Shown here: positions 5,523 through 29,348 of the stretch, piece after piece
Layout: the number at the start of each line of letters is the position of its first letter
How positions within the stretch are numbered: position 1 is the first letter of the stretch
Notes under the pieces: model-generated
Seen by the model: only the letters and a program-made list of their open reading frames with translations
The model's database searches: none
What the model was told of the DNA's origin: nothing
Translations under genes and position numbers: made by a program
Assembly (NCBI GenBank): GCA_963771175.1
Contig: CAVYSY010000001.1
Coordinates: forward strand, 32,001-96,000
Length of the DNA stretch: 64,000 nt
DNA from: an uncultured delta proteobacterium
GTDB taxonomy: Bacteria > Myxococcota > Myxococcia > Myxococcales > Myxococcaceae
Reading direction: 5' to 3'

Positions 5523-5692
5523 ACGGCGCGGATGGTACACCCGCCTCCGAGGGAGCCCGTCCCCGTTTCATCATCCCGGGCCCTCCTCCGCTCTTCGGGC
5601 AAGGAGGCAGATGCTCGCCCCTTCGCGAGCGGAATGATCCTGGGTATACCTGTCTTTCCGCGATGGATCCTCATGCCCGGGAGGTTGTTCAC

Positions 5693-6565
5693 ATGCTTCG
5701 CACTCGCACCGAGGAAGGTTTGCGCCCTTGGGTCATCGGTCTCACCCTGGCCCTCATCCTGGTGGGGTCGCGCGGCGCCGCGCAGACGCTGTCCAAGTCC
5801 GAGGAGTTCTTCGGCAAGGAGGAAGTGGCCCGTCAGGTGGGTCTCCACGAGAAGGGCTGCAAGAAGGGCGATGCGGGCGAGTGCTTCAACCTGGCCCTGG
5901 CCCATGCGCAGGGCCTCTCGGTGAAGAAGGACGATGCACGCGCGGCCACCCTCTACAAGAAGGCGTGCGACAAGGGCCATCTGGACGCGTGCAACAACCT
6001 CGGCATCGCCTACGCGGAGGGCGTGGGGGTGAAGAAGGATCCGAAGCAGGCCCTCACCCTCTTCGAGAAGACCTGCAAGGCGGAGGACGCGAAGGGCTGC
6101 TTCAACGTCGGCCTCGCCCGGCAGGCGGGCCTCGGGGTGGAGCAGGAGCCGGCGAGCGCCGCCACCTTCTTCGCGAAGGCGTGCGACAAGGGCCACGCCG
6201 ATGGCTGCTTCACCCTCGGCATGGCTCATGCGCAGGGCAGGGGAGTGAACAAGGATCCGGCGCGCGCCGCGGAGCTCCTGTCGAAGGCGTGCGAGGCGGG
6301 GAACAAGGTCGGCTGCAGCGTGCTCGGCGTGTCCTATATGACGGGCAATGGCGTGAAGCAGGACATGAAGCGGGCCGTGTCCCTCTTCGAGCAGGGCTGC
6401 GACGCGGGAGTGGCGGCGGGCTGCCTCAACCTCGGCATCGCCCACCGGCAGGGCAATGGCGTGGCGAAGAATCCGGAGCGCGCGAAGGCCCTCATCCAGA
6501 AGGCGTGCGACTCCGGGCTCCCTCCGGCCTGCGACGCGCTCCGGGCCTCCGTGAAGGCTCCCTAG
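5693..6565 (+). CDS. Secreted Sel1-repeat (Hcp-like, Cys-rich) protein
   Basis: Signal peptide; about 7 repeats of ACDKG...C.NLG..Y..G.GV.KD. Confidence 0.92.
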   Translation: MLRTRTEEGLRPWVIGLTLALILVGSRGAAQTLSKSEEFFGKEEVARQVGLHEKGCKKGDAGECFNLALAHAQGLSVKKDDARAATLYKKACDKGHLDACNNLGIAYAEGVGVKKDPKQALTLFEKTCKAEDAKGCFNVGLARQAGLGVEQEPASAATFFAKACDKGHADGCFTLGMAHAQGRGVNKDPARAAELLSKACEAGNKVGCSVLGVSYMTGNGVKQDMKRAVSLFEQGCDAGVAAGCLNLGIAHRQGNGVAKNPERAKALIQKACDSGLPPACDALRASVKAP

Positions 6566-7866: not shown

Positions 7867-9510
7867 GTGGAATCTGATTCAACGGCCCAACCGGCCGATG
7901 AGGATGACTCATCTTCCTGGAAGAGTGACCTCGTCTCTGGCTTTCTTGTCTTCCTCATCGCCCTGCCACTGTGTCTGGGCATCTCCATGGCCAGTGGCTT
8001 CCCGCCGCTGGCTGGCATCCTCACCGCTGTCATCGGCGGTCTTCTCTCCACCTGGTTGGGTAGTGCCCGCCTGACCATCAAGGGTCCCGCGGCGGGCCTC
8101 ATCGTCATCGCGCTCGGGGCCGTGCAGGAGCTGGGCGGCGGTGACATGCAGCTGGGCTACCGGCGCGCTCTCGCCACCATCGCCGTGGCCGCCGTGTTCC
8201 AGATTGTCTTCGCCCTCGTCCGCGCCGGCTCCCTCGGGGACTTCTTCCCCTCCTGTGTAGTGCAGGGAATGCTCGCCGCCATCGGCGTCATCATCTTCGC
8301 GAAGCAGGCCCATTCGCTGCTCGGTGTCACCCCGACCGGCAGCAGCTCCCTGGCTCTGCTCGAGGAGATTCCCCACAGCCTCACGAAGCTCAATCCATCC
8401 ATTGCCCTCATCGGCGTGCTGAGCCTCGTCATCCTCTTCGGCCACCCGTATCTCAAGGGCCGCCTGGCATGGCTCAAGAAGGTGCCCGCGCCGGTGCTGG
8501 TGCTGCTCGTGGCCGTGTCGCTGGGGTTCGCCTTCGAGCTCGACCAGGTCCACACGTACACCCTCGGCTTGATCGGGGCGTCCTACGCGATCGGGCCGAA
8601 CTTCCTCGTCAACCTGCCGGACAACTTCCTGTCCGTCATCACCTTCCCGGACTTCTCCGCCGTCTTCTCGGCCGCCTCGCTCAAGTACATCGCGATGTTC
8701 GCCATCGTGGGTAGCATCGAGTCCTTGTTGATAACGAAGGCCGTCGACTCGCTGGACCCGGAGAAGCGCCGCTCGGACCTGAACAAGGACCTGCTGGCCA
8801 CGGGCGTGGGCAACCTCGCGGCGGGTCTGCTCGGCGGTCTGCCGATGATCTCGGAGATCGTCCGCAGCTCGGCCAGCATCGGCTACGGAGCGAGGAGCCG
8901 GCTCTCCAACTTCTTTCACGGCCTGTTCCTGCTGCTCTTCGTGGCCTTCGCCCCAGCGCTCATCCAGCGCATTCCGCTGGCGGCGCTGGCGGCCATGCTC
9001 ATCTACACGGGGGTCCGACTGGCCTCGCCGTCGGCCTTCGTGCAGACGTTCCGCATTGGCCCCGAGCAGCTCTTCATCTTCAGTGTCACCCTCGTCACCA
9101 CCCTGGCCACGGACCTGCTGGTGGGGGTCATCACGGGCGTGGTGGTGAAGATGGGGGTGCACCTCGTCAACGGCGCGACGATGCGGGGCCTCTTCCGCCC
9201 CTTCGTCGTCGAGCAGGAACTGGGCGGCAAGGTGGTGCTACGTGTGGGCCATGCGGCCGTCTTCAGCAACTATCTCGGCCTGAAGAAGCGGCTCTCGCGT
9301 TTTTCCCATGCGCGTGAGGTGGTCATCGACCTGTCCAGGGCCCGGCTGGTGGACCACACGGTGATGGAGCGGCTGCATCAGCTCCAGGAAGAGTTCGAGC
9401 AGGAGCATCGGCGACTGGAACTGCGCGGGCTCGACCGACACCAGCGTCTCTCCCTGCATCCCCTGGCGGCATGCAAGCGATCGGGCCCCCGGTTCCGGGC
9501 CTCCTCGTAG
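7867..9510 (+). CDS. SulP/SLC26 family anion (bicarbonate/sulfate) transporter with STAS-like C-terminus
   Basis: DLVSGFLVFLIALPLCLGISMASG, GPAAGL, GGLPMISEIVRSS, IPLAALAA, VVIDLS...VDHT; GGAGG RBS before GTG. Confidence 0.92.
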   Translation: MESDSTAQPADEDDSSSWKSDLVSGFLVFLIALPLCLGISMASGFPPLAGILTAVIGGLLSTWLGSARLTIKGPAAGLIVIALGAVQELGGGDMQLGYRRALATIAVAAVFQIVFALVRAGSLGDFFPSCVVQGMLAAIGVIIFAKQAHSLLGVTPTGSSSLALLEEIPHSLTKLNPSIALIGVLSLVILFGHPYLKGRLAWLKKVPAPVLVLLVAVSLGFAFELDQVHTYTLGLIGASYAIGPNFLVNLPDNFLSVITFPDFSAVFSAASLKYIAMFAIVGSIESLLITKAVDSLDPEKRRSDLNKDLLATGVGNLAAGLLGGLPMISEIVRSSASIGYGARSRLSNFFHGLFLLLFVAFAPALIQRIPLAALAAMLIYTGVRLASPSAFVQTFRIGPEQLFIFSVTLVTTLATDLLVGVITGVVVKMGVHLVNGATMRGLFRPFVVEQELGGKVVLRVGHAAVFSNYLGLKKRLSRFSHAREVVIDLSRARLVDHTVMERLHQLQEEFEQEHRRLELRGLDRHQRLSLHPLAACKRSGPRFRASS

Positions 9511-9550: not shown

Positions 9551-11296
9551 ATGCGGGCGTATTGCGCGTGCGCCTTGGGGCGGCCCCTCACACCTTTCCA
9601 ACGGGTGACTGCCTTGCTTCCTCTCCTCGAAATCGCCGTCGTCCTGGTCTTGCTGTTGCCATTGGGGCTGGCCCGGCTCTTTGGCCTGGAGCTCCTGGGG
9701 GCTGACTGGCCCCTGGGCGCGGGACTCGTCGTGCAGGCCGTGGTGGGCCTGCTTCTTCTCACCTACCTGAGAGGCGCCCTGGCTCCACGCGAGCGCGGGA
9801 GGGCGCTGGGGGGCTACCTCCTTGCCTTCGCGGGCCTGGGGGGCGCGTACCTCGCGGGCAAGAGCCTGTGGCTGCCCGTGTGCTGGGAGTTGTCCACGCT
9901 GGGCTTCGTGCTGGCGTTCTTCTCCGGAGGCCATCGCGCGAGCACGGTGCGCGGCGTGGTGGTGCTCTTCGCGGCCAGCGGCGTGTCCATGCTGCTGCTC
10001 GCCGTGTGGGTCTTCCTCCCCGAGGGCCCCATGGGCCTCACGTGCCTGGCGCTCGGGCTGATGCTGAAGGGCGCCTTCTTCGGGCTCCACTTCTGGTACG
10101 CCGAGGTACACGCGGGTGCGCCCAACCATGTCTCCGCGGCGCTGAGTGGCGCGGCGGTGAACCTTCCCGTGCTGCTCTTCGCGCGCTACGCGGCCGGGTC
10201 CGCCGAGCTGGCGCACCATGCTTCGTGGCTGGTGCCCCTGGCGGGTGTGGGCGTGTTCCTCGGGGGCCTGGTGGCCTTCTTCAAGGGGGACGTGCGGCGG
10301 GCGCTGGCGCACAGCACGGTGGAGAACGCCAACGTGCTGTGGCTGTGCCTGCTGACCTCCGTGTTCTTCGCGAGCGAGGGGCAGGCGGAGCTGGCCGCGG
10401 GCTTCCGCTGGGTGTTCTACGGGGTGCTCGTCCACCACGCCCTCTCCAAGACGTTCCAGTTCCTCGGGCTGGGCTACCTCTACGAGCTGGCGGGCAGCAG
10501 CGCGGTGGAGCTGTGCAAGGGCGCGGGGCGCGGCTCGGGGCTGGGCGCGGGCCTGCTGGTGGCGGGCGCGGCGAGCTTCGCGGCCATGCCGGGCACGGTA
10601 GGCTTCCTCGCCGAGACCTCACTGCTGTGGCTGCTGGGTCGTGCCTTCGGGCTGCCGCTGGCGCAGGCTCTTCCGGTGCTGGCGGGGCTCGTCTTCATGC
10701 TCATCGGCCTGGTGCTGGGGGGCTCGGCCCACCTGCGCCTCTACCTGCCCATGGTCCTCTCGGTGCCGGCCCAGGGGGTGGCGGCCGACGTGCACCCGGC
10801 GCCAGCGGGCGTGCGGTACGCGCTGGGCGCGGGAGCGGCGGCCCTCTTCGGCCTGCCAGTGGGGGTGCTGGTGTTCCTGGGCATGCCCGCGTCGGAGGCC
10901 GTGCCGCCAGTGCTGCGCGGGTGGTTGCTGCCGGCCGCGGCGACCTCCACCGTCATCGCCTTGATCTGGGCCGCGCTGGCCCGCTGGCGCTTCGTCCACC
11001 GCGTGCGCGCGCGCGTGCTGTGGGACTGCGGCAATCGCTACCGGGGGCCGGAGTTGTCCGTGCCCTCCAACGTCTTCTCCGCCCCGCTGGAGGCGTCGCT
11101 GGCCCGCTACTTCCTTCGCGAGGACGGGCGCGCGCGGCTGGACCAGAAGCTGCACTCCGCCCTGGAGCGGGTGCTGAACCTGGGGCGCTACTGGATTGGC
11201 GCCGTGGAGTCCGGTGCCGTCTCCACCTACCTGGCCTTCTCCACCCTGGTGCTGATGCTCACCGCCGGCATCCTGGTGCTGTTCAACCTCCTGTGA
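9551..11296 (+). CDS. hyfB: Ehr/Hyf proton-translocating membrane subunit (HyfB/NuoL-like); start uncertain
   Basis: WELS, LKGAFFGLHFWYAEVHAGAPNHVSAALSG, LAHSTVEN, HHALSK, MPGTVGF..E, WDCG. Confidence 0.8.
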   Translation: MRAYCACALGRPLTPFQRVTALLPLLEIAVVLVLLLPLGLARLFGLELLGADWPLGAGLVVQAVVGLLLLTYLRGALAPRERGRALGGYLLAFAGLGGAYLAGKSLWLPVCWELSTLGFVLAFFSGGHRASTVRGVVVLFAASGVSMLLLAVWVFLPEGPMGLTCLALGLMLKGAFFGLHFWYAEVHAGAPNHVSAALSGAAVNLPVLLFARYAAGSAELAHHASWLVPLAGVGVFLGGLVAFFKGDVRRALAHSTVENANVLWLCLLTSVFFASEGQAELAAGFRWVFYGVLVHHALSKTFQFLGLGYLYELAGSSAVELCKGAGRGSGLGAGLLVAGAASFAAMPGTVGFLAETSLLWLLGRAFGLPLAQALPVLAGLVFMLIGLVLGGSAHLRLYLPMVLSVPAQGVAADVHPAPAGVRYALGAGAAALFGLPVGVLVFLGMPASEAVPPVLRGWLLPAAATSTVIALIWAALARWRFVHRVRARVLWDCGNRYRGPELSVPSNVFSAPLEASLARYFLREDGRARLDQKLHSALERVLNLGRYWIGAVESGAVSTYLAFSTLVLMLTAGILVLFNLL

Positions 11297-11309: not shown

Positions 11310-12191
11310 ATGAATGCGCTCGTCGTACTCATCCCGGCCTTCGTGGCCGTCCCGCTGCTCGGTGGCGGCGTGGTGCGCAAGGTGCGCGCCCGCGCGCAGG
11401 GTCGCCGGGGTCCTCCGGTGCTGCAGAACCTCTTCGACCTGATGCGGCTGCTGAGGAAGCAGCCGGTGGACGGCCCGTACTCGGGCTTCTTCGCCGAGGT
11501 GTCCCCGGCGCTGGCGCTGCTGGCGGCGGTGGGCACCTGGTCCGTGGTGCTCTTCGGCTGGGCGCCGCCGCTGCTGGCCGTCTTCCTGCTGGTGCTGCAG
11601 TACGTGGCCACGCTCGCCTTCGCGATGGAGACGGGCACCAGCTTCGGTGGCCTGGGCGCCAGTCGCGAGGTGCTGCTGTCGGTGCTGGCCAAGCCCTGCC
11701 TGCTGTTGGCGATGATGCTGGCGGAGGCGCGGCTGCCCCGCATGAGCCTGGTGGAGGGCGCGCTGCTGGAGGCGCTGATGCTGGGGGCCGTCGGAGTGGC
11801 GCTGCTGGCGGAGATGGCGCGTCCGCCCTTCGATGACCCGCGCACGCACCTGGAGCTGACCATGGTGCACGAGGCCATGCTGCTGGAGGCCTCGGGCCGA
11901 AGCCTGGGCCTCTTCGAGCTGGCCAACCAGGTGAAGCTGGCGGCGCTGCTGTGTCTGCCCGTGCGCATCCTGCTGCGCCACGGCCAGGCCCTCGCCGGCG
12001 TGGCCCTGCCCGGCGTGCTGGAGGGCGTGCTCCTGGTGGGGTTGACGCTGGGGGCCGCGGCGATGCTCGGTTACTGGGAGGCGGTGAGCGTGCGCCGCAA
12101 GTGGACGTGGAACGCGGAGCTCCTGGGCCTGTCGCTGCTGCTGCTGGTGCTGGCCGCTTCGCTCCTCACCTTCTACCCGGAGGCCGTATGA
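11310..12191 (+). CDS. hyfC: Ehr/Hyf membrane subunit (HyfC/HycD, NuoH-like)
   Basis: KVRARAQGRRGPP, FGGLGASRE, R.PFDDP.THLELTMVHEAMLLEASG. Confidence 0.88.
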   Translation: MNALVVLIPAFVAVPLLGGGVVRKVRARAQGRRGPPVLQNLFDLMRLLRKQPVDGPYSGFFAEVSPALALLAAVGTWSVVLFGWAPPLLAVFLLVLQYVATLAFAMETGTSFGGLGASREVLLSVLAKPCLLLAMMLAEARLPRMSLVEGALLEALMLGAVGVALLAEMARPPFDDPRTHLELTMVHEAMLLEASGRSLGLFELANQVKLAALLCLPVRILLRHGQALAGVALPGVLEGVLLVGLTLGAAAMLGYWEAVSVRRKWTWNAELLGLSLLLLVLAASLLTFYPEAV

Positions 12192-12814
12192 GCGCCGACT
12201 TCGCGCACCTGCTCATCCTGTTGGTGGGCGTCATCATCCTGTTGGAGAACCGGCTGCGGCGCGTGGTGCTGCTGTCCGGCGTGCAGGGAGCCCTGCTGCT
12301 CATCCCCCTGCTGTTGAACCGCTCCGGCGAGCTGCACGGGGCCCACCTCTGGGGGCTGGTGGCCCTGATCATCGTCTTCAAGGCGGTGTTCACGCCCACC
12401 GTGCTGATGTGGTCCCTGCGGCGGCTGGGCCTGCCGGAGAACACCGGGCCCCGTCTGGGCTTCCTGCCCACGCTGCTGATGGTGCTCGGGGGCCTCGCCG
12501 CGGCGGGGGCGGCGCTGGCGCGCGTGGACGTCGCCTCGGTGGGCCTGAGCCGGCCGGCACTCGTCTACACGCTGCTGGTCATCTTCGTGGGGGCGCTCAC
12601 CTTCATCGTCCGGACGATGTGGGTGCCGCTCATCGTGGGCTTCGTCGTTTTCGAGAATGGCATCTTCCTGTTGACCCTGCAGCTCGGGACGAACCTGCCG
12701 CTGGGCATCGAGCTGGGGGCCTTCGTGGACACCCTCTTGGTGCTGGTGGCGGCGGCAACGCTGCAGGTCTGGTCCCGTACGCACCCTGGCGCCGAGGCGC
12801 CCCGGCTGCCCTGA
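12188..12814 (+). CDS. hyfE: Ehr/Hyf small membrane subunit (HyfE-like)
   Basis: ATGA overlap with the upstream stop; QG..L, K...P, GFVVFENG, P...ELG...D. Confidence 0.8.
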   Translation: MSADFAHLLILLVGVIILLENRLRRVVLLSGVQGALLLIPLLLNRSGELHGAHLWGLVALIIVFKAVFTPTVLMWSLRRLGLPENTGPRLGFLPTLLMVLGGLAAAGAALARVDVASVGLSRPALVYTLLVIFVGALTFIVRTMWVPLIVGFVVFENGIFLLTLQLGTNLPLGIELGAFVDTLLVLVAAATLQVWSRTHPGAEAPRLP

Positions 12815-12825
12815 GGAACCCCGCA

Positions 12826-14028
12826 ATGGAATTCATCGGCTTCCTGGTGCTGAGCGCCATCGTCTTCCTGGCCCTCCTGGTCAACTTCGTCTTCGGCTCC
12901 TCGCGCACGCACCGCGGACTGGGGCTGTGGCTGCTGCTCTTCCTGCTGCTGGGCGGCGCCATCGCCACCTCGTGGTTCCTGACGGACTCCATCCTGCGGT
13001 GGGTGGTCATCGAGCTGAGCACGCTGCTGGGCGCGCTGCTCATCTCCATGACGCGCTCGCGGCGCGCGCTGGACGTGGCGTGGAAGTTCCTGCTCATCAA
13101 CTCCTTCGGACTGGGCATCGCCTTCCTGGGGCTCATCGTCCTGCTCTTCGCCAGCGGCACGCCGGACAGCCGGCAGGTCTTCCTGCTGCCGCTGGGCACT
13201 CCGCGCTCGGTGGTGCTGATGGAGGTGGGGCTGTGGCTCGCGGTGTTCGGCTACTCGGCCAAGCTGGGCCTCTTTCCCAACCACTTCTGGGTGGGGGATA
13301 CCTACGCGGAGGCGCCCAACCAGGTGGCGGCGCTGCTGGCGGCCTTCATCCCGGTGGCCGTCTGCGTCCCCCTGCGCAACCTGTTGGACCTGGACCGGGC
13401 GCTGCACGTGGGGCGCATCAGCGCGTCCGACGGCCTGCTGCTGCTGGGCGTGCTCACCATGCTCTACAGCGTGTGGACGCTGTACCAGACGCACGACCTG
13501 GACCGGGTGGGCGCGCTGGTGGGCCTCTTCCACAGCGGCGCGCTGGCGGTGGTGCTGTGGTTCCGCCCGGATGACCGCATCTTCTGGTTCCTCATGGCCA
13601 GCAACGTGGTGATGAAGGCGGTGCTCTTCACCAGCCTGGGAGCGCTGCGCTTCCACGTGAGGGACCACCGGCTGGAGGGACTGGGCGCGGTCCCCCGGAG
13701 CGCGCTGTGGCTCTTCCTGCTGGCGCTGGCGTGTGCCTTCGTGCTGCCGCTGTCACCGGTGTTCGTCTCGGACATGCTGCTGGTGCGCGCGGGCTCGCTG
13801 GGCGGGCGGCTGTGGGCGCTGGCGGTACCGGCGCTGGGCCTGGCCTTCTTCGCGGTGGGCCTGGGCAAGGTGCTGCCCATGACTGCGCTGGGGCAGCTCG
13901 ATGTCTCCGGAGAGGGCGCCGCCGCCTTCCGGACGCGCCTGGGCCTGAGCGTGGCCCTGCTGGCCCTCACGGTGGCGCTCGGCGTCTGGGGCCTCATCCA
14001 TTTCCCGATTGGAGGTTTTGGCCTGTGA
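12826..14028 (+). CDS. hyfF: Ehr/Hyf antiporter-like subunit (HyfF-like)
   Basis: WVVIE.STL, AWKFLLI, GYSAKLGLFPNHFWVGDTYAEAP. Confidence 0.82.
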   Translation: MEFIGFLVLSAIVFLALLVNFVFGSSRTHRGLGLWLLLFLLLGGAIATSWFLTDSILRWVVIELSTLLGALLISMTRSRRALDVAWKFLLINSFGLGIAFLGLIVLLFASGTPDSRQVFLLPLGTPRSVVLMEVGLWLAVFGYSAKLGLFPNHFWVGDTYAEAPNQVAALLAAFIPVAVCVPLRNLLDLDRALHVGRISASDGLLLLGVLTMLYSVWTLYQTHDLDRVGALVGLFHSGALAVVLWFRPDDRIFWFLMASNVVMKAVLFTSLGALRFHVRDHRLEGLGAVPRSALWLFLLALACAFVLPLSPVFVSDMLLVRAGSLGGRLWALAVPALGLAFFAVGLGKVLPMTALGQLDVSGEGAAAFRTRLGLSVALLALTVALGVWGLIHFPIGGFGL

Positions 14029-15411
14029 GTGATTCTGCCTCCCTCATTACGGGTGTCTTCCGCCGCGAGCATGGCGGCGCATGGCACCTCTATTCGCTGA
14101 CGGACCGGGCGCTATCCTCGGAGGTGGTGTCCGCCACGGACCCCGAGGCGCTCGTGTCCGAGCGCCACATCCCCACATGGCTGTGGCGGCACTCGGTGGG
14201 GGTGCCCCACGGGCCCGAGGACCTGCGGACCCCCTCGGAGTCCCAGGGCCCGCCGGGCAATCTGGAGTACGCGGGACTCCAGGTGTCGGTGAGCCCGCGG
14301 GGCTATTCGCACGCGGTGGGCCCCATCCACGCGGGCGTCATCGAGCCGGGTCACTTCCGCTTCTCGTTGGAGGGCGAGGTCATCCAGTCGCTGAACATCC
14401 GCCTGGGCTTCCAGCACCGCGGGGTGCGGCGGCTGATGGAGGGCCAGCCTCCGCTGCGGGTGATGCCGCTGGCCGAGTGCATCAGCGGTGACAGCACGGT
14501 GGCCTATGGCCTCGCCTTCAGCCGGCTGTACGAGGAGGCGGCGGGGTGGGGCGTGTCGCCCGAGGTGGAGCTGCTGCGTCTGGTGATGTTGGAGCTGGAG
14601 CGGGTGGCCATCCATGTGGGGGACATCGGCGCCATGGCGGGGGATATCGGCTTCTACCCGCTGCTCGGCCTGTGCAGCACGGACCGGGGCGTGGCGCTGG
14701 GCGCGCTGGAGACGCTCACCGGCTCGCGCTTCGGGCGTGGAGCGCTCTGGCCGGGCGAGGTGCGGTTGAGCCGCAAGCTGACGCGGGAGGATCTCCAGCC
14801 GACGGCGCGGCGGCTGCTGGACATGTGGGCCCGGGTGGAGGACCAGGCGCAGCGGGCGCTCGATGACTCCACGGTCCGCGAGCGCCTGCAGGGCTGCGGC
14901 CGGCTCACGCGGGAGCAGGTGCTGGAGAATGGCTTCGTGGGCATGGCCGCGCGGTGCACGGGCCTGAAGCGGGACCTGCGCCTCGCCGAGCCGCTGTACC
15001 GGGACGGCGCGGGAGCGTCGTTGGAGCTGGCGCCAGACGCCGCGCTGATGCAGGGGGATGCGTACTCGCGCTTCGCGCTCCGGGTGGAGGAGGTGCGCCA
15101 CAGCGTGGAGTGGCTGGCGGCGGTGCTGCCCCGGCTGGACGTGACGTGTGGCGGCCAGGGCCCGTCTGCGCGTCATGGAGCGGCTCGACTGGAAGCCGGG
15201 CGTGTATGCGAAGGCGGTGGAGGGCTGGCGCGGCCCGGTGCTGGTGGCGCTGGACCTCGATGGGGAGGGGCGCGTGCGGCAGAGCTACCTGCGCGATCCG
15301 TCCGTCCTCAACTGGCATGCGTTGGAGTTGGTGGTGCGCTCGGAGCTCATCGGCGACTTCCCGCTCAACAACAAGTCCTTCAACCTCAGCTATGCGGGGG
15401 TGGATCTCTGA
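14025..15411 (+). CDS. Ehr large subunit (HyfG/HycE/NuoD-like) lacking NiFe-binding CxxC motifs; one frameshift near 15150
   Basis: VGPIHAGVIEPGHFRF, HRG, AECISGDS, ELERVAIH. The C-terminus continues in another frame as VEGWRG, RDPS..NW, DFPLNNKSFNLSYAGVDL. Confidence 0.85.
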
Positions 15412-16265
15412 TGTCGATCTTCGAGTGGAAGAACTTCTTCTCCCGGCCGGCCACGCAGGATTACGCGAAGGCCTCGCCGGTGCAGGCGCGGGCTCGCGGG
15501 GTGCCCGTGCCGGTGCGCGATGCGGCGGGCTCGTGCGCGGACTGTGGGGTATGCGAGCGTGTCTGCCCCTCGCGGGCGGTGAAGGTGGAGGGCTCGCGGG
15601 CGCTCGCCTTCGACTATGGCGCGTGCCTGCAGTGCGGGCTGTGCGTGCGGGTCTGTCCGGAGCAGCGGCTGGAGGACTCGGGGCTGACGTACGCCTTCGC
15701 TCTCGAGCGGGACACGCTGAAGGTGACGTTCGACGGCTGCGACTTCGAGCCACGCGCGGAGCCGGTGCCGGAGAACGTGGAGCGCTTCCGGACGCTGACG
15801 GGGGGCCGGGGCCTCAACTACCGCGAGGTGGCGGCGGGCAACAACACGGTGGAGTGCGAGCTCAACGCGAGCTTCAACAACGTGTTCGACAGCGAGTCGC
15901 TGGGCATCCGGAGCGTGGCCTCGCCGAAGCACGCGGACGTGGTGCTGTTCTCGGGGCCGGTGGGGCCGAACATGGTGGGGCCCCTGCGGACGGCCTGGGA
16001 CGTGATGCCGGAGCCGAAGGCGCTGGTGGCCTGTGGCACCGAGGCGGTGAGCGGAGGCCTGTTCCCCATGGGCGAGCGGCCGAAGACACCGGACCTGTTC
16101 ATCGCGGGGGACCCGCCGAGACCGGACACGGTGCTCAACGCGCTGCGCTACCTGATGGGGAGGATGAAGTACTCCTTCCAGCACGCGCTGCGGGACCGGG
16201 TAGCGGAGCTGCGCCAGCCGTCGGGCCTCCCGGCAGGACAGGCACATCGGGGCTCTCGCTCCTGA
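15411..16265 (+). CDS. Fused 2x[4Fe-4S] ferredoxin (HyfH/NuoI-like) + HyfI/NuoB-like small subunit with degenerate cluster ligands
   Basis: CADCGVCERVCP and CLQCGLCVRVCP; ASPKHADVVLFSGPV, PEPK; TGATG overlap with the large-subunit stop. Confidence 0.87.
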   Translation: MSIFEWKNFFSRPATQDYAKASPVQARARGVPVPVRDAAGSCADCGVCERVCPSRAVKVEGSRALAFDYGACLQCGLCVRVCPEQRLEDSGLTYAFALERDTLKVTFDGCDFEPRAEPVPENVERFRTLTGGRGLNYREVAAGNNTVECELNASFNNVFDSESLGIRSVASPKHADVVLFSGPVGPNMVGPLRTAWDVMPEPKALVACGTEAVSGGLFPMGERPKTPDLFIAGDPPRPDTVLNALRYLMGRMKYSFQHALRDRVAELRQPSGLPAGQAHRGSRS

Positions 16266-16663: not shown

Positions 16664-16837
16664 ACCCCCACCGCGAGCCGCCCCGACGCAGGTTCTGCGT
16701 GCGAGGGGGCTCGCGGACGCCGCTCCCGCAATCCTTGCGTGTCCGGAGGGGCGGATGGTTGATGAGTGGACAGGCACGAGGACTGCAACGTCCCGGGTGG
16801 GCCCAGCGCACTGGTGCCCGAATCCAAGGAGGTTTTT

Positions 16838-17224
16838 GTGAGCATCAAATGGATGGGCGCGATGTTGGCGCTCGTGGTGGGCCCGACTGCATGGGCCGCG
16901 GCGCCGAAGTCCACGCCGGCGCTGATGGCGAAGGGCAAGGCCTCGTACGCCACCAACTGCCTCGCGTGTCATGGCGAGAAGGGCGAGGGCAACGGCCCGA
17001 CGGGTCAGTACCTGGCCCCGAAGCCGCGCAACTTCGTGGCCGAGCCCTTCAAGAAGGGCAACAAGCCGGAGGAGGTCTTCAAGAGCATCACCGACGGCCT
17101 CCAGGGCAGCACGATGGTGTCCTTCGCCAAGCTTCCCGAGGAGGAGCGCTGGGCGCTCGCCTACTACGTGCTCGACTTCCAGCCGAAGGCGAAGCCGGCC
17201 CCCGCGAAGAAGGGCAAGAAGTAG
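16838..17224 (+). CDS. Monoheme c-type cytochrome, secreted
   Basis: AAGGAGG RBS; signal peptide ending AWA; CLACHG, PKPRNF, distal Met (STMVSF). Confidence 0.92.
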   Translation: MSIKWMGAMLALVVGPTAWAAAPKSTPALMAKGKASYATNCLACHGEKGEGNGPTGQYLAPKPRNFVAEPFKKGNKPEEVFKSITDGLQGSTMVSFAKLPEEERWALAYYVLDFQPKAKPAPAKKGKK

Positions 17225-23277: not shown

Positions 23278-23375
23278 GGGGTTGGCAGTCAGACGCAGTA
23301 GCGGTCCGTCAGTCGGAGTCCCGTCGCACGGTCGGTTCCAGCGGTCGCACCCATTCCGAGGTGGCGCTCCACACG

Positions 23376-24700
23376 ATGCGAAAGAACTTCATCCTCGACA
23401 CCAACGTCCTGCTCCACGACCCGCGCTCGATCTACGGCTTCAAAGAGCACAACGTCATCATCCCCATCTACGTCATCGAGGAGATCGATCAGTTCAAGCG
23501 CGATCTCTCCGAGCTGGGACGCAACGCGCGCCTGGTGGCGCGCTACCTGGACTCGTTCCGGGAGGAAGGATCCCTGAAGGACGGCGTGAAGCTGCCCCAT
23601 GGCGGCCTGCTGCGCGTGTGCTTCACCGAGAGGGACCTGCCGCTCGTCCATGGCGGACAGCAACCTGATGGACAACCGCATCCTCGCGGTGGCCATCGAC
23701 CTGATGGAGCGCGAGCCCCAGTCCCCGGCCGTCTTCATCACCAAGGACACCAACCTCCGCATCCGCGCGGACGCGCTGGGGCTGATCGCCGAGGACTACG
23801 ACGCCGAGCGGGTGGAGATCACCGAGCTCTACACGGGCTTCACCGAGCGCCTGGTCCCTCGCGAGCTGGTCGACCAGATGTACAAGCCCACCGCCGAGGT
23901 GGAGCTCTCCGGGCAGGACAAGCTCTCGCCGCACCAGTTCATCCTGCTCAAGGACGAGACCAACCCCTCGCACACCGCCATGGGCCGCTTCAACGCCACC
24001 CGGGGCCGGGTGGTGCCGCTGCTGCGCGGCATGAAGAGCGAGGGGGTGTGGGGGGTCCGCCCGCGCAACATGGAGCAGAGCTTCGCCCTGGACCTGCTGA
24101 TGAATGACGAGATCAAGCTCGTCACCATCGTGGGCAAGGCGGGCACGGGCAAGACGCTGCTCGCCATCGCCGCGGGGCTCCACAAGGTGACCGAGGAGGG
24201 CACCTACCAGAAGCTGCTCGTCAGCCGGCCCGTGTTCCCGCTCGGCCGGGACATCGGCTACCTGCCGGGCACCCTGGAAGAGAAGATGAACCCCTGGATG
24301 CAGCCCATCTTCGACAACGTGGAGTTCCTGATGAACCTCAGCCGCGCCGACAAGAAGGCCGGCCGGGGCTACCACGAGCTCATCGACCTGGGGCTGATGG
24401 AGATCGAGGCGCTCACCTACATCCGCGGGCGCAGCATCCCCAACCAGTACATCATCATCGACGAGGCCCAGAACCTCACGCCCCACGAGGTGAAGACGAT
24501 CATCACCCGCGTGGGCGACAACACGAAAATCATTCTCACCGGGCGACCCGTTCCAGATCGACAACCCGTACGTGGACGCGACCAACAACGGACTCGTCCA
24601 CGTGGTCAACCGGTTCAAGAACGAGAAGATCGCGGGCCACATCACCATGGCCAAGGGCGAGCGCAGCGCCCTGGCCGAGCTCGCGGCCAACCTGCTCTAG
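23376..24700 (+). CDS. PIN-PhoH (PhoH2/YlaK-like) protein; frameshifts near 23640 and 24543
   Basis: FILDTNVLLHDP, TKDTNLRI, GKAGTGKT, DIGYLPG, IRGRS, IIDEAQN, RSALAELAANLL. Confidence 0.92.
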
Positions 24701-24727
24701 GCCCCTGCGCCGCCCGAGGAAGCAGTC

Positions 24728-25045
24728 ATGAGTGGAGACGGTAAGGGAGAAGTTCTCACCACCAGCACCGGCGACGGCCAGGAGAACAAGCCGCTCATCG
24801 AGTATCCCACCGTCTACACCTTCAAGGTCATGGGTCGGCAGGAGGCGGACTTCCTGGAGTACGTCCGGGAGTTGTTCCGGGCGCTCATGGGGACGGAGAT
24901 TTCCTCGGATTCCATCCGGGAGCAGCCCAGCAGCAAGGGCACCTACGTCTCCGTGAGCGTATCGGTGTACCTGCTGTCCGAGGAGCACCGCCGCTCCATC
25001 TATACCCGGCTCCGCCAGGAGCAGCGGGTCGTCTACTACCTCTGA
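24728..25045 (+). CDS. DUF493 (YbeD-like) protein
   Basis: LIEYP..YTFKVMG, PSSKGTYVSVSV. Confidence 0.85.
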   Translation: MSGDGKGEVLTTSTGDGQENKPLIEYPTVYTFKVMGRQEADFLEYVRELFRALMGTEISSDSIREQPSSKGTYVSVSVSVYLLSEEHRRSIYTRLRQEQRVVYYL

Positions 25046-27313: not shown

Positions 27314-29327
<2,014 letters not shown>

Positions 29328-29348
29328 CGGAGTGACAGGGTAGGACCC

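Follow-up and report, generated by a model that had tools for sequence, protein, structure and literature searches.

A conserved Ehr-type complex without proximal-cluster cysteines and its bicarbonate-related gene neighbours in a myxobacterium and the Leptospiraceae

What can a relative of complex I and the [NiFe] hydrogenases still do once the ligands of its proximal iron-sulfur cluster are gone? This question is raised by a six-gene operon in a 64,000-nucleotide stretch of DNA (the window) from an uncultured delta proteobacterium of the family Myxococcaceae (GenBank assembly GCA_963771175.1, contig CAVYSY010000001.1, positions 32,001 to 96,000, forward strand). Its small-subunit gene (15411..16265, +) is translated into 284 amino acids and joins an N-terminal 2x[4Fe-4S] ferredoxin (NuoI/HyfH-like) to a NuoB/HyfI-like domain without cluster cysteines, as judged from the translation, the Pfam Fer4 families and PF01058. 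An earlier note on this DNA had claimed that all four canonical cluster cysteines were replaced (C to N, V, E and D), and this holds: the four cluster cysteines of E. coli HycG (7z0s_G) match N144, V147, E211 and D234 in a HMMER alignment that is gap-free between the first two ligand positions. The finding is real, conserved and convergent, and none of the 110 aligned sequences of the clade to which the protein belongs has a cysteine at any of the four positions.

The former CxxC now reads N144-N-T-V147 (15840..15851, +; N144 codon 15840-15842, V147 codon 15849-15851), and the third and fourth cysteines have become Glu211 (16041..16043, +) and Asp234 (16110..16112, +). Within the clade, position 144 is N in 110/110 sequences, position 147 is V in 87, T in 14, A in 4, G in 3 and S in 2, position 211 is E in 105, D in 3, G in 1 and a gap in 1, and position 234 is D in 109 with one gap. 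The motifs quoted in the earlier note (AAGNNTVECE, VACGTEAVSGG, IAGDPPRP, ASPKHAD, SGPV and PEPK, with two CxxCxxCxxxCP motifs) are all present in the translation. Its description of the Glu and Asp near the site as new was right for E211 and D234, which replace cysteines, but not for the Glu of VECE, both of which are ancestral: of the 92 relatives that keep the cysteines, 81 have E148 and 71 have E150. The two ferredoxin motifs (15534..15656, +) supply cluster A (C42, C45, C48, C82) and cluster B (C52, C72, C75, C78), a pairing that follows the standard ferredoxin pattern. Cluster A is complete in 94/110 sequences, cluster B in 109/110 and both in 94/110; the 15 sequences of the main clade that have lost cluster A keep at most cluster B. 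An AlphaFold2 model of the subunit has a mean pLDDT of 88.9, its weakest inner stretch being residues 141-160, the former CxxC loop; the best Foldseek matches of this model are NdhK, HycG and MbhJ, and a search of the ESM Atlas with the NuoB domain returned PF01058 clusters only (0.84, a lead-level score).

Indel noise, which the note had also discounted, and sequencing noise were rejected as causes of the cysteine loss on the strength of the 110-sequence alignment and of contigs from four public runs. These contigs overlap parts of the gene (that of run X1 covers the whole of it) and, among the differences listed, none falls in the four ligand codons. Contamination by a low-GC Leptospira was likewise rejected, the GC content being 71% across the operon and 93-96% at third codon positions in the five in-frame genes.

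The protein search behind these counts gave 110 hits, of which 109 were aligned with the query, one with a weak ferredoxin match (P0112) being left out. The gene was found in 110 of 114 Leptospiraceae genomes, and the 58 clade loci come nearly all from Leptospiraceae, with one other deltaproteobacterial metagenome-assembled genome (MAG). The clade is sharply bounded, with four clusters at 293-434 bits followed by a fall to 178 bits, and it forms one branch (SH-aLRT 99) in a tree built by a quick method on 128 columns, with 117 of 277 domains kept after thinning and 56 of 114 inner branches open; two of the "loss" rows in the tree set, P0173 and P0212, resemble broken proteins. For 13 pairs compared, the NuoB domain gave ratios of nonsynonymous to synonymous substitution rates (dN/dS) of 0.003-0.19. 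Loss of the cysteines is a conserved, clade-wide trait and not decay; close homologues that retain them, which by the note would have refuted its claim, are absent from the 110. That the N2-equivalent wire is broken, as the note supposed, is supported by a conserved clade under purifying selection without the four ligands and by the loss of a basic residue in the partner subunit. A search of 17 genomes of the same genus did not find the module, so the myxobacterial host probably gained it by lateral transfer.

Sequence comparison indicates that the large subunit has been altered together with its small-subunit partner. This NuoD/HycE-like protein (14025..15411, +; PF00346) is shifted in frame by one extra base at 15164-15165 in the assembly; the base is missing from 4/4 runs (3 studies), and the frameshift is therefore an assembly error. 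Aligned with HycE, the orthologue at locus L001, whose motifs are identical in the window, lacks the NiFe CxxC motifs (ECISGDS vs RVCGIC, LSYAG vs PCYSC) and has no C-terminal extension. The residue before the first NiFe-cysteine position, Arg in HycE, is basic in 13/14 outgroup sequences but in 0/55 clade sequences, and the E-K of HRGxEK is also lost in the clade; presumably both the basic residue and the HRGxEK residues border N2 in complex I. All 55 large subunits of the clade and all 18 from Bacteroidales have H102, E107, H110, D156, D200 and D207 (L001-orthologue numbering, used throughout for the large subunit), while Y211 and C217 are invariants specific to the clade. Gly stands in 139/147 sequences at what is probably the position of the quinone-binding Tyr.

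By the description given in PMC6349859 and PMC10432482 (here and below, papers are cited for the accessible parts of their text), a large subunit without the NiFe cysteines and without the C-terminal extension places the complex among the Ehr complexes. The operon follows the Ehr plan (hyfBCEFGI), in which two antiporter-like, a NuoH-like and a HyfE-like subunit accompany the large and small hydrogenase-like subunits. It comprises a HyfB-like antiporter subunit (9551..11296, +; PF00361; start codon uncertain), a HyfC/NuoH-like subunit with a conserved acidic loop (11310..12191, +; PF00146), a HyfE-like membrane subunit with conserved charges (12188..12814, +; NF008556 below cut-off) and a HyfF-like antiporter subunit (12826..14028, +; PF00361), followed by the large and small subunits. 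E113, K173, K300 and E355 of the HyfB-like protein are invariant in 47/47 clade sequences, as are E63, K146 and K264 of the HyfF-like protein in 50/50. No electron-input or donor gene was found in the operon by Pfam scan and comparison of clade loci, and the small E, F and G subunits that belong to the full MrpA-G set of the Mrp Na+/H+ antiporter have no counterpart in the operon or in the 58 clade loci. There was no match to PF00374 in the host's own genome, which is 82% complete; an ordinary, separate nuoB lies on its contig C51.

Described Ehr complexes likewise have six genes in the same order, a large subunit without NiFe ligands, Mrp-like antiporter subunits and an unsolved function (PMC6349859, PMC10432482), and the assumption has been that they link redox reactions to the movement of charge (PMC6349859). 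In the complex described here, by contrast, the small subunit is without N2 ligands and fused to a ferredoxin, and its gene adjoins bicarbonate genes. The Hyq "endo-hydrogenase" of Azorhizobium caulinodans (hyqBCEFGI), described as a version of the complex I core, has the same six-subunit plan, but all HyqI orthologues are said to keep four cysteines for an N2-type cluster, and H2:quinone activity is proposed (PMC3357923); retention of the four cysteines in the Hyq small subunit is also given in PMC2650096. Since they occur in 0/110 of our sequences and are not named in the Ehr description cited above, we assign the complex as an Ehr variant and not as a Hyq-type member. The nearest solved structures by sequence and fold, HycG/HycE of the E. 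coli formate hydrogenlyase and MbhJ/MbhL of the Pyrococcus MBH, retain the NiFe and proximal-cluster cysteines missing here and make H2; no solved Ehr structure turned up in the structure searches made here. Absent as well are the two large-subunit CxxC motifs of group 4 [NiFe] hydrogenases and the ligands of the N2 cluster in NuoB of respiratory complex I (NDH-1).

By the same kind of comparison, the cluster has been lost separately in at least two other lineages, leaving carboxylates again. About two dozen other small subunits (representatives of 50% clusters) have acidic residues in place of cysteines, and the well-supported branches of the quick tree force at least 3 changes, or 9 at face value. 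In the Bacteroidales the four positions read D-x-D-N in 27/27 parsed loci (30 fetched), 20 of which retain the second cysteine, and a close form is carried by about one quarter of the 201 genomes of the order that holds a Rikenella MAG. In a second lineage, from metagenomes, they read D-E/D-D-S/A/I in 79/79 parsed loci (of 80). Both lineages have lost cluster A and retain at most ferredoxin cluster B. Every cluster-less lineage keeps two or three carboxylates at differing positions, which would stand in for the lost cluster's charge of about -2 rather than form a fixed ligand set. Among Ehr small subunits at large, many that keep the cysteines have no ferredoxin, and N2 only, B + N2, A + B and B only all occur; as no cluster is common to all, an obligatory wire is a poor fit.

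Several of these loci have features of their own. The Rikenella MAG encodes two distinct cluster-less small subunits, of D-C-D-D and D-x-D-N type, an Allomeiothermus plasmid has a T-D-E-S form and a Variovorax plasmid carries two Ehr operons 3 kb apart (loci L063, L092 and L093). In the metagenome lineage (L097-L176) the large subunit is also without the Ehr His/Asp motifs (GPVRSG...ES, IEASFGLS), and neighbours recognised by eye are enolase-, universal-stress- and pyrophosphatase-like open reading frames (ORFs). Four cysteine-keeping Ehr operons (L069, L073, L078 and L080) are followed by NuoEF-like, molybdopterin (formate dehydrogenase-like) and mercury reductase-like genes, so that some Ehr complexes may have a donor. 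No single catalytic set common to all cluster-less lineages was found in the comparison of large subunits.

The gene neighbours of the clade's complex hint at inorganic carbon. A SulP, SbtA, beta-carbonic anhydrase (beta-CA) or CsoSCA-like protein is encoded in 32/58 clade loci, with PII-like genes after SbtA and one SulP-CA fusion. SbtA or SulP lies within 10.2 kb in at least 63/110 genomes, where chance predicts about 1.6% per genome, and in six genomes without SbtA a SulP occupies the same slot. Such neighbours suggest a CO2/bicarbonate role. In the window, a SulP/STAS anion transporter native to the host genus (7882..9510, +; PF00916; start uncertain, ORF open from 7804) ends 40 bases before the module. 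It has 71-80% orthologues in 13/17 same-genus genomes and is about 45% identical to the Leptospiraceae SulP neighbours; on these comparisons the SulP pairing in the myxobacterium is an event separate from the Leptospiraceae arrangements. The orthologue stands directly before dabA in 11/13 congeners, with dabA 2.7 kb off in one and none beside it in one, and two PF00361 genes follow dabA in the one congener scanned. In the window, the cluster-less Ehr occupies dabA's place behind SulP. The host genome has a second SulP elsewhere, followed by dabA and a PF00361 gene (contig C51, 186006-191350), about 20 kb from the ordinary nuoB; this is its only DabA. In the Leptospiraceae, DabA was found in only 10/114 genomes, which counts in favour of a CO2/bicarbonate role of the cluster-less Ehr. 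Strict mutual exclusion of DAB and the cluster-less Ehr was not found. A general rule by which cluster loss goes with bicarbonate genes was tested and not found in the two other lineages, in tblastn searches with one protein each of SulP, SbtA, SbtB, beta-CA, CsoSCA-like protein and DabA, a set that gamma-CA and distant forms could escape.

Other genes recur around the operon in the relatives. A leader ORF of about 100 amino acids (N-terminal hydrophobic stretch, acidic patch, C-terminal IPPP/RGPP/RAPP) precedes the operon's first gene or the SulP-CA fusion (L003:3243-3572, L016:3795-4091, L020 before 471, L004:3779-4117, L231 ending at 1698). A simple filter built on these ORFs picked out 27 leaders in 959 kb of loci, every one of them at such a position; a further 20 regions gave one more, and the window gave none. 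The leader ORF resembles ribosome-arrest leader peptides. In saprophytic Leptospira the small-subunit gene is followed, within a few bases, by that of a class III adenylate cyclase with a receiver domain (L037:10813-12045, with 16 more loci); its motif YTAVGD is that of the bicarbonate-responsive subtype, though common. In the saprophyte L. biflexa the six genes are LEPBI_I2417 to about I2423. Non-autotrophic Leptospira encode, convergently to the operon, a candidate CsoSCA-like beta-carbonic anhydrase of 470 amino acids (CIDGR...H...GCAAH), seen at L031:11844-13259 (-) and in 10 more loci; the label rests on an Atlas score of 0.93 and a Pfam match below cut-off, and a PDB sequence search with it found nothing. 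Between sbtA/sulP and the module there is a gene for an outer-membrane porin of the Alginate_exp family that is regulated together with the module (L031:2200-4143 and 15 other loci).

Taken with the missing ligands, these observations lead us to propose, at somewhat less than an even chance, that the complex is a non-redox, proton-gradient-driven pump that turns CO2 into cytoplasmic bicarbonate. The non-standard chemistry that the earlier note expected is likely, although the evidence favours a non-redox CO2/bicarbonate job that it did not name. Without cysteines for the NiFe site and N2, the six-subunit complex would operate without electron transfer. Glu211 and Asp234 would replace two negative charges of the lost cluster, preserving the fold and the contact with the large subunit, and the ferredoxin cluster that is always kept would likely be structural. 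CO2 could be hydrated in the large-subunit cavity, with H102, E107, H110, D156 and C217 as candidate residues, which is the weakest step of the scheme. Proton flow through the HyfB- and HyfF-like subunits would render hydration one-way, as proposed for DAB (bioRxiv 10.1101/476713). Bicarbonate would in parallel enter through SulP or SbtA, and carboxylases would draw on the product at air-level CO2.

By analogy, the complex may work like a DAB without being one. The DAB/DAC systems (DabA PF10070 + DabB PF00361) also combine a PF00361 membrane subunit with a soluble part, lack electron input and are gradient-driven (10.1101/476713), the gradient drive being a prediction for the complex here, and the DAB operons of the congeners start with an orthologue of the window's SulP. 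Assays for such a pump, uncoupler-sensitive uptake of inorganic carbon and rescue of E. coli that lacks carbonic anhydrase, are described in 10.1101/476713. DabA has a beta-CA-like Cys/Asp/His/Cys zinc site, which was not found here, where the soluble part is NuoD/NuoB/NuoI-like. A relative of complex I turned to one-way CO2 hydration is already known in the cyanobacterial NDH-1 with CupA/CupB (PMC10880623, 10.1101/476713), but that complex is electron-driven and has the added Cup subunit, whereas here the wire is missing and no added subunit was seen. In L. interrogans Hardjo kept in a sheep peritoneal chamber, sbtA, the porin and all six genes go down by log2 -1.9 to -2.4 (PMC13066512), and this fall of sbtA together with the six genes is compatible with a low-CO2 system. 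The operon is not shown in the accessible part of a serum transcriptome (PMC2841595), and the supplement rows of PMC8638967 compare mutants inside chambers and have no bearing on it.

A number of observations weigh against a CO2 pump. Genomes of kin are not independent, and the neighbour counts amount to about six distinct gene arrangements, not 63 events; 26/58 clade loci, including the saprophytic Leptospira group, have no bicarbonate neighbour. None was found in 80 metagenome D-E-D-S loci (many short), 20 Bacteroidales regions, 22 GTDB outgroup loci or 6 plasmid loci. Nine Leptospiraceae have both DabA and the cluster-less Ehr, and the myxobacterial host has its own sulP-dabA-dabB locus and three beta-CA matches. 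In the sheep-chamber data the nuo genes are down too (log2 about 1.1-1.3) and the SulP-CA fusion is up 3.2, CO2 was not controlled, and the authors favour oxidative-stress regulation (PMC13066512); in a perR mutant table three operon genes are up with nuoM/N among many others (PMC8638851). The effect of deleting hyq in Azorhizobium, where the relative keeps its cysteines, was interpreted as an H2 phenotype (PMC2650096, PMC3357923). Finally, H102, H110, D156, D200 and D207 are missing from the D-E-D-S lineage (44 sequences), so cluster loss alone is not a sign of CO2 chemistry. For this reason, and because neither a carbonic anhydrase motif nor a match to the DabA domain (PF10070) was found in any subunit, the proposed catalytic site is a guess.

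A wider version of the proposal is more doubtful still, well short of an even chance. It holds that the complex would join DAB and NDH-1/Cup as a third type of energised CO2 pump, in which a complex I core without NiFe site and N2 is run by the proton gradient and hydrates CO2 in the former hydrogen/quinone cavity. Such a pump would be a core machine of the Leptospiraceae that in the myxobacterium replaces the DAB operon in its slot, and from the repeated loss of N2 it would follow that Ehr complexes are not, as a group, oxidoreductases.

It is also conceivable, though we think it unlikely, that the complex does no chemistry and that the neighbouring SbtA or SulP is energised or balanced by it, acting as an ion exchanger or pH module, for instance through a Na+ gradient, the peripheral subunits serving as scaffold or sensor. 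Transporters are indeed the commonest neighbours, with two unrelated families exchanging in one slot, and SbtA and BicA are Na+-dependent; the antiporter charges are intact and no catalytic motif was found in the subunits. Such a module would have to manage without MrpE/F/G-like genes, which form the Na+ path of Mrp. It would also leave aside that the large subunit retains His, Glu and Asp round the old active site in 55/55 sequences and adds the invariants Y211 and C217, and that the same slot in congeners is filled by a catalytic pump, DAB.

Conversion of the N2 pocket into a different metal site, the note's alternative to a broken wire, is in our view improbable. In this reading carboxylates would bind Zn, Mg, Mn or Fe, or the pocket would house an unusual cluster, and electrons would still pass from the ferredoxin clusters to the site or to quinone. 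The near-invariance of N144, E211 and D234 would suit it, and a carboxylate-bound cation at E211/D234/N144 is conceivable; hydrogenase small subunits in which one Cys ligand is exchanged for Asp are known. The retention of cluster B, alone or with cluster A, and the movement of the operon with nuo genes in two transcriptomes point the same way. The earlier note had pointed to two spare cysteines next to a possibly remodelled site, but a role for them as its ligands did not survive the alignment: C149 is found in 59/110 sequences, C208 in 74/110, both in 35 and neither in 12, and this variability makes a rebuilt cluster unlikely. Moreover, the second ligand position holds a small, mostly hydrophobic residue, cluster A is dispensed with in part of the clade as well as in both other lineages, the carboxylates do not keep their places between lineages, and no donor gene is linked to the operon.

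A shared non-redox function of all Ehr complexes that has nothing to do with CO2, such as acid or anion stress, is to our minds just as improbable; the bicarbonate neighbours of the clade would then reflect shared regulation only. The lack of bicarbonate genes near the Bacteroidales, D-E-D-S, GTDB outgroup and plasmid loci is what it predicts, but it does not explain why the myxobacterial copy was paired separately with a native, DAB-associated SulP so distant from the Leptospiraceae ones, or why the SulP-CA fusion genes have the same type of leader ORF. That the module is a decaying relic or an assembly artefact, as the frameshifted large subunit and the absence from the 17 congeners might suggest, is very improbable given that the extra base is missing from every run, that dN/dS is far below 1, that nearly all Leptospiraceae have the gene and that the L. 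interrogans genes are transcribed; for the clade as a whole, decay is refuted by selection and distribution.

Ehr complexes are widespread, stand between hydrogenases and complex I and are without a proven function, and the papers assume electron transport. PMC7304191 notes a loss of cysteines for large subunits only, and the accessible parts of PMC11442865, PMC2702500 and PMC7304191 make no mention of it in the small subunit. Carbonic anhydrase genes beside formate hydrogenlyase-like clusters have been noted without a CO2-pump explanation (PMC10880623, PMC11346949). Searches of the open-access literature brought up neither an account of an N2-less Ehr nor one of a CO2 role for such a complex, although subscription papers and bioRxiv supplements may bear on the point. 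That an N2-less Ehr is core to one bacterial family, and that such forms arose several times, speaks for a dispensable cluster. The N2-less form offers the cleanest test of a non-redox role, and its gene context makes Ehr function directly testable. If the proposal of a CO2 pump is true, it would add a new class of such pumps, show how non-redox chemistry can be powered by complex I's coupling machinery and correct the Leptospira annotations "hydrogenase-4" and "second NADH dehydrogenase".

Around the operon, the window also holds a Sel1-repeat gene upstream (5663-6565) and a monohaem cytochrome c gene 500 bases downstream (16766-17224), neither of which recurs beside the operon in related loci. 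Farther along, a PhoH-like gene (23361-24744) and a dnaK-like gene (27327-29343) are each split over several frames, probably by more assembly errors.

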